NCBI GenBank assembly: GCA_020833025.1 | Contig: JAJHRB010000007.1 | Span: 1-36,318, forward strand | Length of the DNA: 36,318 nt | Direction: 5' to 3' | DNA from: Thermoproteaceae archaeon | GTDB lineage: Archaea > Thermoproteota > Thermoprotei > Thermoproteales > Thermoproteaceae | In this document: positions 4,112-24,520 of the stretch, in pieces | Layout of the letters: the number at the start of each line of letters is the position of its first letter | Position numbering within the stretch: position 1 is the first letter of the stretch | Made by a program: the position numbers and the translations under genes | Notes under the pieces: model-generated | What the model saw: only the letters and a program-made list of their open reading frames with translations | Databases searched by the model: none | Told to the model about the DNA's origin: nothing

Positions 4112-5460
4112 AGTACTGCCTTGTTGTAAATTCTCTTCCAGACCAGCGCGTTCACGACCACGACGAATGTGGTCATTGTGAGCAGCAAAACTGATACCAG
4201 CTGCATGTTGCCAGCCTCAGCTGCCGAGACCAGCGCGGAGCCTATTCCGTGAACTCCGGCGAGAGGCTCGGCAATCACTATTGCATTCCACGCGCCGCCC
4301 CACGCAGTTAGCAGTCCGGTGGCGAGATAGGGGAGGGATGCCGGCAGGAGGACGTGCGCATAGTACACAAGCCCCCTAATCCCGTACGCTGCGGCGTACT
4401 CAACCGGCACGTCGCGCCTTGCCGCACACGCGTTAAGTACCACATACACGGCGCTGCCGGGCAGCAGAAGCGCGTACGCCAGCAGCTCGCCGCCGAGCGC
4501 GTGGCTGAGAAGCGGGTATAGAAACGGCGCTGGCACCGACGATAATGCAGAGGTCAGCAGCAGGACAGCCCCTTCCAGCCCCGGCCTTCTGAGCACGCAC
4601 TCCAGCACGAGCAGACCAATGGCGAGGCACAAGAGCAGCACCAGCATTACGCGGAGCAGCGACGCGGCCAGCGCGTCGATAGAGTACATAAGGTAGGCCG
4701 CCGCCACGCCGGGGGCTGCGCCCAGGAGCGGCGAGACGGCGCAGTATACCAGCGCGATAAACAATATCAATATCAGCGCCGCAGATAAGAGGGAGCCGTG
4801 GCTCGTCCAAGCGGCCAACGCCCCCGCCACTCTCGCCGGCAGCGGCGGTAGTTCTTTAACAAGACGCGACCAGAGCAGCGCATACAGCGCGAAGTTAAAT
4901 GCCGAGCCGACCACTATGCCGAGCGCCATCATGAGCTCGTCTCCGCTCATGTAGGCGCTCATCACTAGGCTCCCAATGCCAAAAACCCTGTGCTCAGACG
5001 CGCCCAGGGCTATGACCTCGGAGGACGTGATGAAGAAAAACGCGTTGGCCCAGGATACCGGAATATTGTAGTACACGCTGCACAGCGCTGCCGGTATTAG
5101 CACGTGCGCCAGCTCCAGGCGCTTGTCTCTGAGATACGCACGCGACATTTCAACGTACTCCCGCGGAATCGTCTTGAACGACTGGTAAACGCCAAGGATG
5201 ATATTCCACGCCGTGCACGTGAAAATCAGAAACATGACGGCCAGCTCGACGCCCGCGACGGGAGCCAGCCGCACGATAGCGTGCAGCGCGACGGGAAAAA
5301 ATGCAAGTATGGGAATTGACTGAAGCACGTCAATGATGGGCAGCGTGAGCCGCTCGACAAGCCTGGAGTTGCGCATTGCATACGCAAGCGCGCAAGCAAC
5401 GGCCACTGACGCGAAGAGCGCGGCCATTATGCGTCCCGAGCTCGCGAGTGCTGCCAGCAT
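4099..5460 (-). CDS. NitT/TauT-family ABC permease with two BPD_transp_1-like modules
   Basis: PIIDVLQSIPILAFFP, AWNII, GGAWNAIVIAE motifs; highly hydrophobic; overlaps ATPase start. Confidence 0.85.
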   Translation of the reverse strand: MLAALASSGRIMAALFASVAVACALAYAMRNSRLVERLTLPIIDVLQSIPILAFFPVALHAIVRLAPVAGVELAVMFLIFTCTAWNIILGVYQSFKTIPREYVEMSRAYLRDKRLELAHVLIPAALCSVYYNIPVSWANAFFFITSSEVIALGASEHRVFGIGSLVMSAYMSGDELMMALGIVVGSAFNFALYALLWSRLVKELPPLPARVAGALAAWTSHGSLLSAALILILFIALVYCAVSPLLGAAPGVAAAYLMYSIDALAASLLRVMLVLLLCLAIGLLVLECVLRRPGLEGAVLLLTSALSSVPAPFLYPLLSHALGGELLAYALLLPGSAVYVVLNACAARRDVPVEYAAAYGIRGLVYYAHVLLPASLPYLATGLLTAWGGAWNAIVIAEPLAGVHGIGSALVSAAEAGNMQLVSVLLLTMTTFVVVVNALVWKRIYNKAVLWLS

Positions 5461-8966: not shown

Positions 8967-8980
8967 CGAAAGTTTTAAAT
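8967..8980 (+). promoter_or_regulatory. BRE + TATA box driving the tRNA 5' piece at 9003
   Basis: CGAAAG-TTTTAAAT, with TATA ~29 nt upstream of tRNA G1. Confidence 0.75.
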
Positions 8981-9002
8981 AGCCGCAGCCTAATAGCCGC
9001 AA

Positions 9003-9056
9003 GCCCCGGTAGCTCAGCCCGGTCGGAGCGCCCAGGCAGCCCCGCCGGGCCGCCGC
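9003..9056 (+). tRNA. tRNA 5' fragment (positions 1 to ~29, Thr-like) with GC-rich trailer; candidate split tRNA piece
   Basis: GCCCCGG-TA-GCTC-AGCCCGGTCG-GAGC-G-CCC gives the acceptor 5' strand and a complete D arm; no T-loop or CCGGGGC downstream; trailer AGGCAGCCCCGCCGGGCCGCCGC then pyrimidine tract. Confidence 0.75.
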
Positions 9057-9538
9057 ACTCCCAGTCCTCCTCTCGAGCCGCTCCCAAGGGGCCGGTCTCC
9101 ACGGAGGGCGCAGAGAAGCCGGAGCGAGAGTGCGCGGCTGAGCGTATTCGGCCCCTCAGGGTATCGGCGCGGCGCGTCAGCGTGTCATTCAAGCGCGTTG
9201 CGGCCTCGCTGAGCTGCGGCGCCGCCCGGAAAAGCTCGGCCAATTAAGGCCGGCCGCGATGTAGCGCGCCCACCATATCTGCCACTATGCCGGCGCTTAC
9301 ACCGCCGGCCTGCGGGCAGGAAGCATGGCTGCGAGAAGGGATCCCGACATGCCGATTACCGCGTCGAGAGCGCCCACTAGCGCAGGTCGCGCCCAGAATC
9401 CTCCCCTCCTTTAGCCGCTCTCAGCTGGCGCGGTGTCTCCTGGCGGCCCCGCTGCAAACAGCCCTAACGCTAGCGTGGCTGGCGCCGGCAGCAACGCGAG
9501 TGCACGCTGTTTGCGAATATCCCGGCGTTGCGCGAAAT

Positions 9539-12615: not shown

Positions 12616-12732
12616 TGGTGGACCGGCCGGGATTCGAACCCGGGATCGCCCGCGCTCTCGGGCGTATTGTGGCACGCCGCGCCAAGCGGGCATCCTTCCG
12701 CTAGACTCGGCGGTCTCGATCTCTACCGGCCC
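12616..12732 (-). tRNA. tRNA-Ala(GGC) with two introns (17 nt at 10/11, 12706-12722; 25 nt at 37/38, 12655-12679); CCA encoded
   Basis: Removing both introns gives 75-nt GGGCCGGTAGTCTAGCGGAAGGATGCCCGCTTGGCGCGCGGGCGATCCCGGGTTCGAATCCCGGCCGGTCCACCA, a full cloverleaf with G3-U70; TTTAAA at 12764-12769. Confidence 0.93.
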
Positions 12733-20893: not shown

Positions 20894-22528
20894 GTGAGCT
20901 TTGAGATTGCCGCCAAGGACTTGGCGGCCAGAGTGGGGCGGCTCAGAGTGAAGGGCGGTGTCGTAGAGACTCCCGCGCTCTTCCCGGTAGTTGACCCGAG
21001 AAAGCAGGAGGTGCCTGTCGAGACGCTGAGGAAGTACTTTGGCCAGGTGATAACAAATGCCTACTTCATATACAAGCTTACTGGCGGCAAGACGGTAGAC
21101 GTGAAGAAGTTTATCAAGTGGGACGGCGTTGTAATGACGGACTCCGGGGCCTATCAGATGATACACCGCGGCACAGTTGAAATCGATCCAGATGAGATCC
21201 TGACATACCAGTCGAGAATAGGGAGCGATATAGGAGTCATTCTCGACATTCCGTTTGACTATGAAGAGCCTTACGAGAGCGCGCTGCTCAAGGTAGAGGA
21301 GACGATCAGGAGGGCAAAGCGGGCTGCCACGATGCTGGACAGGTTGGACATGCTCGTCGTCGCGCCGCTGCAAGGCGCTCTCTACACCGACTTGCTCATC
21401 AGGTCAGTCCGCGAGCTATCGAGACTAGGCTTCCACGTATTCGCAATAGGCAGCCCGACGACACTACTCGAAGAATATAGGTTCGACCAAGTACTCGAGA
21501 TTGTGCTGAACGTGAAGCTGAACATGGCACGAGAGGCGCCGCTCCACCTCTTCGGGGCCGGGCACCCGCTGATAATTCCATTCGCCGTGGCTCTCGGCGT
21601 TGACGCGTTTGACAGCGCGTCCTACATACTCTATGCCAGAGACGGCAGGGTCTTGCTGAGAGACAGGACGCTGCGGCTTGACGACGTGAGGACGGACTAC
21701 TTGCCGTGCAGCACTAAACTGTGCGAGATGCCCGTGAGGGAGCTGCTGGAGATGCCCCAGCACGAGCGCACGCTGCTGATAGCAGAGCACAACCTGGCTG
21801 TGATACGGGAGGAGCTGCTTGAAGTCAAGCAGCGCATATATGAGGGCACGCTGTGGGAGTACCTCGAAGTTAAGGCGCGCGCCCACCCCTCGCTCTACAG
21901 GTTCCTCCTGCTCTTGAGACGCTACCGGCACCTGCTTGAGGAGTACGACCCGGAGACGCACCCAAGACCCCACGGGCTGGTGTTTTACGGCGACACGTCG
22001 CCCGCAAGGCCGGAGCCGCTGAGACACCGCACGAGGATGTCGCGCGTCGAAATAAGCGGGAGGGCGGTAATTGTCCTGCGCGTCGAAGAGAAACCGTATA
22101 ACAAGAGCTGGGAGTATCAGTTTGTAAAGAGCATTGCAGGGAGCAGAATTCCAGTGCTCTTCTTCGATCCCACTTTTGGCATAATTCCGGAGGGCATTGC
22201 AGATGTCTACCCGCTGTCTCAAAACTCGTCCGAGGGCGAGAGCGAGGAGGCCAGGGCATTTGCGTACGAGTGGCTGGGCCGCTACGATGTGATACTGGCG
22301 TACGGAGTTGACCTGCCGCTGGCAGGCAAGCGCGTCATAAGACTCAGCTCGCTGGAGGAGATAGCAAACATGCTCTCCCTCAGCCCCGGCAGCCATCCAG
22401 AGGGCGGGGGCCCCGGGACGCCCTATATCCCGGACCGCGCAGTCCCGCCCTCAGGGCCCCCGCGCGCCCCCGCCAGCGGCGGGACTAAAGTGGAGTCAGC
22501 CGTTGAGGGCGGCGCACGCCTTATATGA
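20894..22528 (+). CDS. tgtA: Archaeosine tRNA-guanine(15) transglycosylase
   Basis: MTDSGAYQ, GVILDIP, PLQG, HLFGAG, GVDAFDSA, LPCS; last ~50 aa are an atypical G/P-rich extension. Confidence 0.93.
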   Translation: MSFEIAAKDLAARVGRLRVKGGVVETPALFPVVDPRKQEVPVETLRKYFGQVITNAYFIYKLTGGKTVDVKKFIKWDGVVMTDSGAYQMIHRGTVEIDPDEILTYQSRIGSDIGVILDIPFDYEEPYESALLKVEETIRRAKRAATMLDRLDMLVVAPLQGALYTDLLIRSVRELSRLGFHVFAIGSPTTLLEEYRFDQVLEIVLNVKLNMAREAPLHLFGAGHPLIIPFAVALGVDAFDSASYILYARDGRVLLRDRTLRLDDVRTDYLPCSTKLCEMPVRELLEMPQHERTLLIAEHNLAVIREELLEVKQRIYEGTLWEYLEVKARAHPSLYRFLLLLRRYRHLLEEYDPETHPRPHGLVFYGDTSPARPEPLRHRTRMSRVEISGRAVIVLRVEEKPYNKSWEYQFVKSIAGSRIPVLFFDPTFGIIPEGIADVYPLSQNSSEGESEEARAFAYEWLGRYDVILAYGVDLPLAGKRVIRLSSLEEIANMLSLSPGSHPEGGGPGTPYIPDRAVPPSGPPRAPASGGTKVESAVEGGARLI

Positions 22529-22644
22529 TCGCTGGCTGCAACAACCCCCGTCCAAAGCAGCCGCGCCTCGTGTGCCTCGGAGAGAAATCGGAGAGAAAAA
22601 AAGAGGCAACAGAAGGCATGGGGAGGGGCTAGGCGCCCCAAACA

Positions 22645-22660
22645 ACTAAAAATTTAAAAA
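22645..22660 (+). promoter_or_regulatory. BRE + TATA box of the tRNA-Leu 3' piece
   Basis: ACTAAAAA-TTTAAAAA; spacing as at the 9003 promoter predicts a start near 22681. Confidence 0.7.
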
Positions 22661-22680
22661 TGCGCGGGAAGAGAGGTCCC

Positions 22681-22788
22681 ACCAGCCGCCGCCCGCCCGA
22701 CTCAAGGGGCAGGGCTCTCGGCTGCAGGCCGGCCCACAAGACCCTGTGGCGTAGGCCTGCGTGGGTTCAAATCCCACCCCCCGCACCA
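22681..22788 (+). tRNA. tRNA-Leu(CAA) 3' piece (positions 22-76) with 5' leader and 20-nt intron at 34/35 (22718-22737); candidate split tRNA
   Basis: AGGGG-CAGGG-CTC[intron]AAGA-CCCTG-TGGCGTAGGCCTGC-GTGGG-TTCAAAT-CCCAC-CCCCCGC-A-CCA; the required GCGGGGG acceptor strand and D-arm 5' side are absent in cis. Confidence 0.88.
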
Positions 22789-22804
22789 CCCTCCTGCCGG
22801 CTCC

Positions 22805-23980: not shown

Positions 23981-24469
23981 TTAAACTTTGCGCGCCTGGC
24001 GGCACCTGTCCCTCGCGGAGACCTCTACCTCCAGCAGCGCCAGGTACTGCTCGTCTGTCACTGAAATGAGCGGGTTCGCCCTCTGCACTTCCTGTATCGC
24101 GTCGTCGGCGCTCAGACACTTTGTGAGTACCAGATACGCGGCAAGCGCCGTGGCAGTCCTCCCGACTCCCCCGACGCAGTGGACCACCACGGCGCCTCTC
24201 GATGCCTCAAGCGCGATGATCTCGGCAAGGTCGTGCAGGTCTCTTGGCGCGCGCCCGTCTTGCGTGGGCCAGTGCACCCACTTGATTCCGCTCTTCTCCA
24301 GCACCCGGCGAAACTCGCGCGGGTCCCACCTGCCGTAGTGCTCTAGCTCCCACGACTCTGCCAGGGTTATTACAGTTCTCACGCCAGCTCTGACCCACTC
24401 CACGACGCTCTCTGCGCTTGGCACGCAAGACCCGGCGACTCTCTCGTCAAGCCAGTACAGGCAGTTCAC
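23981..24469 (-). CDS. Dual-specificity/tyrosine protein phosphatase
   Basis: HCVGGVGRT active-site loop, WPTQDG general-acid loop; start at GTG 24469 or upstream. Confidence 0.9.
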   Translation of the reverse strand: MNCLYWLDERVAGSCVPSAESVVEWVRAGVRTVITLAESWELEHYGRWDPREFRRVLEKSGIKWVHWPTQDGRAPRDLHDLAEIIALEASRGAVVVHCVGGVGRTATALAAYLVLTKCLSADDAIQEVQRANPLISVTDEQYLALLEVEVSARDRCRQARKV

Positions 24470-24520
24470 GCGCACAGCGCCGGCGGTACCATAAATACCC
24501 GCCACAGCAATGCCCGCAGC

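Follow-up and report, generated by a model that had tools for sequence, protein, structure and literature searches.

A candidate trans-spliced tRNA-Leu(CAA) gene divided in the D loop in a divergent Pyrobaculum genome

Split tRNA genes are rare and have been central to the debate on whether tRNA was assembled from two half-genes or whether the splits are late accidents. By 2014 about 29 split-tRNA pieces with 12 anticodons were known from seven genomes (PMC4033280). The isotypes named in reviews are Glu, His, Lys, iMet, Gln, Gly, Ala and Asp and the hosts Nanoarchaeum, Caldivirga, Aeropyrum, Thermosphaera and Staphylothermus (PMC4090602, PMC4033280). Chan et al. found a trans-spliced tRNA in none of the five Pyrobaculum genomes then known (PMC3218864). 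A review by Kanai (2015) stated that no class II (Leu, Ser) split tRNA was known and argued from this that class II tRNAs are young (PMC4390854). An initial annotation of the locus described here had held that the known split tRNAs do not include a Thermoproteaceae tRNA-Leu split in the D loop, which agrees with the other isotypes named in these reviews (PMC4090602, PMC4033280, PMC4390854). No later report of a split class II or Pyrobaculum tRNA was found in openly readable full text.

The locus lies in a stretch of 36,318 nucleotides, referred to below as the window, which is the whole of contig C34 of a 1.56-Mb genome in 126 contigs with 62.6% G+C. It is a MAG from a divergent member of Pyrobaculum and clusters with 17 genomes that belong to a single genus; its archaeosine TGT shares 70% identity with those of Pyrobaculum oguniense and of a Pyrobaculum MAG. 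Completeness is about 94% and the estimated contamination 0. It is very probable, judging from the architecture of the locus and of its relatives, that positions 22645-22788 constitute an independent transcription unit making the 3' piece (positions 22-76) of a trans-spliced tRNA-Leu(CAA).

The 3' piece and its putative promoter in the window

Reading of the sequence between 22400 and 23000 places tRNA-Leu(CAA) positions 22-76 on the forward strand at 22705-22788 once a 20-nt intron is removed (Table 1). The initial annotation had assigned the same coordinates and had omitted this intron, whose own BHB reads GGGC-TC/T-CGGC ... GCCG-GCCC-AC/A (the slash marks the cut). The exons of the piece are free of defects and the internal intron retains its BHB. 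No tRNA was called here by ARAGORN or Rfam (gathering, E<=1), which is expected for an intron-bearing fragment and is uninformative. Positions 22-76 stand alone and the remainder is absent in cis: a 15-mer of acceptor and D stem had 2 matches at 3 mismatches in the 36-kb window against 3.03 by chance, and the earlier statement that the acceptor-5'/D-loop part of tRNA-Leu is missing upstream therefore holds.

The A/T box of the window piece aligns with the AAAAAYTTAAAWA box found 5' of three sibling 3' pieces. Among 18 contiguous tRNA genes of the same genome the A/T box ends 15-28 nt (mostly 19-25) 5' of the mature end, and the distance from box end to A22 in the window piece is 43 nt, so that some 22 nt are left over for a leader (about 22682-22704). 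The box is thus homologous to those of the siblings and stands at tRNA-like spacing plus a 22-nt leader, in agreement with the BRE/TATA and the leader start near 22681 that had been proposed for it.

Table 1. Coordinates of the 3' piece in the window and of the other pieces of Leu tRNA genes in the assembly
Feature	Location	Strand	Basis or remark
Promoter, BRE/TATA-like A/T box	22645..22661	+	read from sequence
Best TATA 8-mer TTAAAAAT	22654-22661	+	inside A/T box
C-rich leader arm, predicted start about 22682-22684	22682..22698	+	predicted trans pairing with G-rich trailer of 5' piece
GACT, intron-side strand of BHB 4-bp central helix	22699..22702	+	pairs with G18G19U20C20a of 5' piece
3-nt bulge CA/A (CA of leader 22703-22704, A22 = 22705)	22703..22705	+	BHB geometry
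Predicted 3' splice site = tRNA junction 21/22	between 22704 and 22705	+	BHB geometry
Exon, positions 22-34 (D-stem 3' strand, G26, anticodon-stem 5' strand, C32, U33, C34)	22705..22717	+	
20-nt intron, position 34/35	22718..22737	+	own BHB
Exon, positions 35-76 (A35 A36, anticodon-stem 3' strand, long variable arm, T arm onward)	22738..22788	+	
T arm	22761-22777	+	
Acceptor 3' strand CCCCCGC	22778-22784	+	
A73	22785	+	
Encoded CCA	22786-22788	+	
Leu 3' piece, CAA	window (C34)	+	
Leu 3' piece, UAG	C89 near 48.5 kb	+	
Leu 3' piece, CAG	C89 near 53.5 kb	-	
Leu 3' piece, GAG	C102 near 3.2 kb	+	
Leu 5' piece F1	C89 44350	+	TATA-like box, 24-nt exon, AG, G-rich trailer GGGCGGGCGGGTGG...
Leu 5' piece F2	C89 55050	-	TATA-like box, 24-nt exon, AG, G-rich trailer GGGCGGGTGGCGGGTG...

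That the region is correctly assembled is clear from three sequencing runs (X1, X2 and X3, from three hot-spring samples of one study), whose Logan contigs span 22300 to 22757 or 22766 with 0, 1 and 6 base differences respectively and with deletions of 1 nt (X2) at 22596 and 4 nt (X3) at 22621. All of these differences lie outside 22637-22766 and the contigs break only inside the T arm, which is common to all Leu genes; in a run from a second study (X4) the contigs gave no cover over 22609-22736. The unbroken passage of contigs from three runs excludes a misassembly at 22660-22700, which had been named beforehand as a fault that could undo the reading. A contig chimeric at that place, or pieces brought together from different organisms, can be given next to no credence: tRNA repeats do break assemblies, as the Logan contigs themselves do in the conserved T arm, and the genome is a MAG of many contigs, but the contigs of the three samples run on unbroken, four loci spread over three contigs share one architecture, the split is seen independently in two sister-genus genomes and the estimated contamination is 0.

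Two other tRNA-like loci were observed in the window. At 8970-9060 (+) a tRNA 5' part, GCCCCGG-TA-GCTC...GAGC-G-CCCAG, comes after a TATA-like box (AAAGTTTTAAATAG). Its tRNA pattern ends in the anticodon stem, where a GC-rich trailer (GCAGCCCCGCCGGGCCGCCGC) takes over, and the locus resembles a 5' piece, which would belong to a second split tRNA. At 12616-12732 (-) there is a tRNA gene with the acceptor GGGCCGG/CCGGTCC and an encoded CCA, which carries about 40 extra nt at two sites, the D arm and the anticodon region, and of which the ends alone are recognised by tmRNA and tRNA models (26 and 25 bits). This is probably a multi-intron tRNA.

The Leu gene set, partner pieces and splice motif

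In a regex scan that covered the whole assembly, Leu 3' ends numbered five and Leu 5' ends three. The four 3' pieces have a common build, with a TATA-like box, a C-rich leader containing CCCGCCC and a tRNA that begins at A22; they align across promoter, leader, exons and 3' flank and differ in the anticodon, and outside the anticodon arm the exon sequence of the window piece is identical to that of its siblings. The sole contiguous Leu gene, on contig C100, has a 19-nt intron homologous to that of the window piece. On first sight C100 was taken for a CAA gene, a reading rejected on the placement of the intron, the BHB of which (GGGC-NN/N-CGGC ... GCCG-GCCC-NN/A) puts it at 34/35 and so makes position 34 the second nucleotide of the left bulge; this nucleotide is C in the window piece (CAA) and T in C100 (UAA). 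The closed genome G024 (1,841,542 bp), in which Leu genes number exactly five, served to test the placement; two of its Leu genes carry introns homologous to these. Three of the five are UAA, CAA and UAG, and a fourth is GAG with either placement. The remaining one, with a left bulge TC/A and a right bulge AG/A, is CAG with 34/35 and a second GAG with 33/34. Since 33/34 would give G024 two GAG genes and no CAG, 34/35 holds, and C100 is therefore tRNA-Leu(UAA). The anticodons CAA, UAA, UAG, CAG and GAG then occur once each in the assembly, 4/5 as split pieces, and the window piece is, on this reading of the sequences, the only CAA source found there, about 6% of the genome being unassembled. 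That missing fraction could harbour a third 5' piece or a contiguous gene for Leu(CAA), and CAA might perhaps be dispensable if tRNA-Leu(UAA) reads UUG by wobble.

Two 5' pieces with a TATA-like box of their own and complementary G-rich trailers were found on contig C89 (F1 and F2), and every 5' and 3' piece has such a box at tRNA-like spacing. Their exons are identical (24 nt, GCGGGGGTGCCCGAGCCAGGTCAA, positions 1-21) and encode exactly the 5' exon that the initial annotation had predicted; the trailer predicted with it, GGGCGGGCGGCGGCTGG, is absent from the assembly in that exact form, the actual trailers giving 13 contiguous bp or 10 bp plus a few. The situation that the same annotation had allowed to count against it, a genome with no 5' piece and an intact Leu(CAA) gene elsewhere, was not encountered, given these two pieces and C100 being best read as UAA. 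The window piece could use either F1 or F2, the exons of which do not differ.

The window leader pairs with the F2 trailer over 13 contiguous bp (one G-U) and 2 more, with a dG of -35.4 kcal/mol, and with the F1 trailer over 10 bp plus a few more, with a dG of -32.4 over the 17-nt arm; longer flanks bring these values to -39 (F2) and -43 (F1). The corresponding control, 3000 33-mers taken at random from the genome, had a mean of -16.7 (sd 7.1) and 0.03% were as good. Over all leader-trailer duplexes the dG ranged from -32 to -49 kcal/mol, far beyond random genome 33-mers, which average -14 to -18 (sd 6-7) with <=0.07% of 3000 as good. No perfect trailer complement to the window leader is present among the 5' pieces, and the sole exact match genome-wide to the complement of the 17-nt leader arm is the window itself. 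Many unrelated GC-rich sites in the genome match that complement at 1-3 mismatches; complementarity alone is therefore unspecific and it is the adjacency to Leu 5' exons that is decisive. Unconstrained co-folds of both pieces were dominated by alternative GC pairings and were discarded. 

All BHB-like pairings were enumerated, requiring a 4-bp helix, an outer helix and, on both strands, cleavage two nucleotides 3' of the 4-bp helix. Whichever 5' piece is taken, one solution alone gives a tRNA-like joined product, having as its central helix GGUC x GACU (4 bp, one G-U), bulges of AA/AG (4 nt) on the 5' piece and CA/A (3 nt) on the window piece, and an outer helix GGGCG/CGCCC and beyond of at least 10 bp. 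The predicted motif is relaxed, not canonical, because the 5' bulge has 4 nt. The initial annotation had described GACT as pairing exactly with G18-G19-U20-C20a beside a 3-nt bulge. Its four pairs and the bulge CA/A22 on the window piece stand, with the corrections that one pair is a G-U and that the bulge on the 5' piece has 4 nt; its junction at 21/22 is borne out by the single solution and by a cis intron at the same site in related Pyrobaculum. When the 24-nt 5' exon is attached to the sequence from 22705 on, the resulting D loop is the one seen in contiguous Leu genes, and the joined, intron-free product is called by ARAGORN, in silico, as an 88-nt tRNA-Leu(CAA) with encoded CCA. It is almost the same in sequence as the contiguous Leu(CAA) genes that relatives have. 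This is a complete tRNA that no contiguous gene supplies, given the 34/35 placement and with ~6% unassembled. The joined products of all pieces were likewise called as 88-nt tRNA-Leu.

A C/D-box small RNA on C89 (about 61688-61741, -) has both guides antisense to tRNA-Leu, pairing with CAAAGGGGCA, across the 21/22 junction region, and with CTGTGGCGTA, at the start of the variable arm. It was considered as evidence of the ligated junction and set aside as not decisive, the guide pairing with the unspliced pieces too via one G-U.

A caveat applies to the sibling pieces. The UAG, CAG and GAG pieces are without the 4-nt central-helix strand (CCCGCCC-AG/A) and none of the standard BHB pairings enumerated for them yields a tRNA-like product, so that for the family as a whole the model of processing has a gap. 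One may conjecture for the siblings a helix of 3 out of 4 bp in which GGUC pairs with the final GCCC of the leader; it leaves the 16-bp outer helix intact for the UAG/F1 pair only. If the siblings are functional, the endonuclease must take a substrate outside the described relaxed motifs.

The splicing-endonuclease alpha subunit is encoded in the genome, with a full-length match to PDB 2ZYZ chain B (E 1.9e-94). 2ZYZ is the Pyrobaculum aerophilum heterotetramer and the catalytic alpha subunit is orthologous to its chain B; the structural beta subunit had no match with Pfam models. RtcB is also encoded in the genome. The RtcB matches fall in two parts of one 961-aa frame (C60 4614-7331, +) that cover profile positions 2-55 and 46-426 about 1.3 kb apart, and the gene looks intein-containing.

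The initial annotation had taken the locus for the trans-splicing half of a split tRNA, and at the level of sequence this is supported by the promoter-bearing 5' pieces, the BHB and the cis-intron homology. Transcription, annealing, the cleavage sites and ligation are predicted steps. RNA would start about 22 nt 3' of the TATA box, giving a leader of about 22 nt, the C-rich arm of which would anneal to the G-rich trailer of the 24-nt 5' exon RNA made from F1 or F2, with the acceptor stem and D stem forming between both RNAs. The pairing of GACU with G18G19U20C20a would set the cleavage sites in the bulges AA/AG and CA/A22 of a relaxed BHB. A heterotetramer-type endonuclease would then cut both RNAs and RtcB would join A21 to A22. 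The same enzymes would excise the second intron, at position 34/35, and the predicted end product is an 88-nt tRNA-Leu(CAA) with its CCA encoded.

The 22.7 kb upstream of the piece within the window contain no Leu 5' exon and have protein genes in both orientations, and the piece has its own promoter at a spacing that fits a 22-nt leader. A single very long cis-spliced gene, with its 5' exon at a great distance upstream in the same replicon and all the DNA between as an intron, is on these grounds very improbable, even though on C89 each 5' piece precedes a same-strand 3' piece, by 4.1 kb and 1.45 kb, and ARAGORN proposed a 2.5-kb 'intron' for Leu(CAG) that was anchored further upstream than the 5' piece. 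There are also fewer 5' pieces than 3' pieces, so that at least some must join in trans.

Locus history, relatives and probable origin of the split

Leu genes of G015 (a closed genome), G010, G004 and G014, all of the same genus, have a cis intron at the same D-loop site, with the layout ...GGTCAAAG-GGGCGGGTGG-loop-CCGCCC-GGCT-AG/AGGGGCAGGG, where the slash marks the 3' cut. The trailer and leader found in the split pieces correspond to its two arms, GGGCGGG...CCCGCCC-GGCT-AG, and the leader arm of the window piece is homologous to the 3' arm of the intron. As in the split pieces, the intron lies at the same site with GGGCGGG/CCCGCCC arms, a central helix with G18G19U20C20a and an AG/A or CA/A bulge. 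The arms of the cis intron are joined by a loop of 4-6 nt within one gene, whereas here they lie on separate units on different contigs. Among the homologues the central-helix strand is GGCT, GGCC or GACT, each of which keeps four pairs with GGUC (G-U, U-G or U-A).

Outside the genus, a single Leu 5' piece is present in each of G018 and G020, which belong to a sister genus within the family. There are five promoter-bearing 3' pieces with all five anticodons in G018 and four in G020, which is about 80% complete, and the leaders are identical within each genome. An excess of Leu 3' over 5' ends without another explanation was found in three genomes only (this one, G018 and G020) among 62 genomes from the order. 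Four others (G032, G035, G056 and G017) were rejected as split candidates on account of a variant 5' end (GTACCCGAG), contig ends or a T-arm-only remnant. A scan of metagenome contigs for CCCGCCC-N(2-6)-AGGGGCAGGG found a tRNA at 0/80 loci among the matches listed, the pattern being too unspecific.

Most of the sister-genus 3' pieces (L019, L023 and L064-L070) other than the CAA pieces L066 and L069 have an extra 16-nt anticodon-stem intron, GGGGCA-AGACGCAGGTCCCCCA-AGGG, that resembles the intron of the Leu(UAG) gene of G024 (L208). In another family of the order a Leu(UAA) gene (L062, G040 C63 4977-5270) has a short intron near 26/27 and an insert of about 190 nt after position 37, with a TATA-like box just 5' of the 3' part; this may be a tandem split or a long intron.

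The neighbours of the window piece are genes for archaeosine TGT, TFE, an iron alcohol dehydrogenase and a phosphatase. In G015 and G016 a dual-specificity phosphatase gene lies 3' of the contiguous Leu(CAA) gene and its orthologue in the window is at 23981-24505, while the upstream neighbour in those two genomes is found here on C124, followed by a TATA-like box and no tRNA piece. In P. oguniense and another Pyrobaculum MAG no tRNA adjoins TGT, from which it follows that the upstream side of the present locus is not ancestral. Downstream synteny thus puts the 3' piece at the ancestral locus, with the upstream side replaced by a promoter-leader module, and that module is homologous to the promoter-leader of the sibling pieces. 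A TnpB-type ORF of 427 aa with a Cas12f1-like TNB domain (L031 12544-13827, -, equivalent to C89 55543-56826) was noted about 0.5 kb 5' of F2 on the same strand and is a possible agent of local rearrangement. Truncated copies of tRNA-Ser(CGA), on C17 (-) near 94 and on C78 (-) near 4348, start in the anticodon arm with unrelated sequence before it; intact Ser(CGA) copies are on C17 and C69, and the truncated ones are maybe integration-site remnants or contig-end duplicates.

The loss of the upstream half of the ancestral locus bears on whether the window piece might be a non-functional relic, a 3' remnant of a Leu(CAA) gene left after rearrangement or integration, with UUG read by an unassembled CAA gene or by Leu(UAA) through wobble. 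Such a remnant would leave the former neighbour on C124 with a TATA-like box and no tRNA piece, as is observed, the assembly is incomplete, and plain truncated 3' copies do exist in the group, e.g. the T-arm-only Leu copy of G017 and the Ser(CGA) copies on C17 and C78. It is nevertheless improbable. The promoter and leader are homologous to those of three siblings bearing otherwise missing anticodons, 13 bp of the leader can still pair with the trailer of a 5' piece, the central helix is complete at 4/4, the exons are without defect and the BHB of the internal intron is kept. The piece stands between archaeosine TGT and iron alcohol dehydrogenase among its neighbours and no integrase, transposase or mobile-element gene flanks it. 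A strain variant that has changed on both sides of 22637-22766 and not inside it also speaks against a relic, weakly, as only ~2-3 changes would be expected there. A tRNA remnant left by duplication of an att site was likewise rejected: there is no integrase and no intact gene of the same anticodon in the assembly, the copy reaches position 22 and it has a promoter and a structured leader.

Trans-splicing of a functional 3' piece is therefore the preferred reading, and the homology of the arms suggests how it arose. A Leu gene with a D-loop intron was probably broken inside the intron, and the promoter-leader module probably spread later among the Leu isoacceptor genes. A wider proposal, which we regard as evenly poised between right and wrong, is that in one Thermoproteaceae lineage a whole class II isoacceptor family is built combinatorially: four or five 3' pieces, each with its own promoter and differing in the anticodon arm only, would draw on one or two common 24-nt 5' exon RNAs, the trans-splicing taking place in the D loop; the arrangement would have arisen from a cis D-loop intron and spread by copying of the promoter-leader module, and three of the junctions in the present genome would have lost the central helix.

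Comparison with known split tRNAs

The Leu locus and its siblings would remove the premise that class II tRNAs lack splits (PMC4390854). Within one family four states can be seen, i.e. no intron, a cis intron, a set split in part (this genome) and one split throughout (the sister genus) with one 5' piece for five 3' pieces, and with this series it can be tested how an intron turns into a split and how the split state spreads. Because standard tRNA finders miss these genes, MAGs of the group will appear to be without most Leu tRNAs. The mechanism is the known one; the isotype, class, junction (21/22) and genus are new.

In Nanoarchaeum equitans (Randau et al. 2005; PMC4090602) the pieces likewise have their own promoters and GC-rich complementary leaders and trailers, the BHB is likewise relaxed and is cut there by a broad-specificity endonuclease, and one half is common to two Glu isoacceptors. 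The host there has the reduced genome of a symbiont, with splits mostly at 37/38, and its trans-splicing was demonstrated experimentally, whereas the Leu split is predicted from DNA sequence. The splits of the Desulfurococcales (PMC3218864) are likewise apparently recent, with a contiguous gene in close relatives, are also given low scores or missed by tRNA prediction, and local rearrangement has been implicated in them; unlike the present case they concern single tRNAs at 37/38 or 30/31.

A close likeness is to the split and tri-split tRNAs of Caldivirga maquilingensis (Fujishima et al. 2009; PMC4033280, PMC4390854). That organism, too, is a free-living hyperthermophile of the Thermoproteales, with separately promoted pieces, complementary leaders and trailers and splits at non-canonical sites, there 25/26 and 29/30. 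One constant piece likewise serves several synonymous isoacceptors, and the intervening sequences resemble introns of relatives. The tRNAs split in Caldivirga are class I (Gly, Ala, Glu), whereas here a class II tRNA-Leu is concerned, in another family and genus (Thermoproteaceae, Pyrobaculum), with the junction at 21/22 inside the D loop, a 5' exon of 24 nt and, in the sister genus, up to five 3' pieces for each 5' piece.
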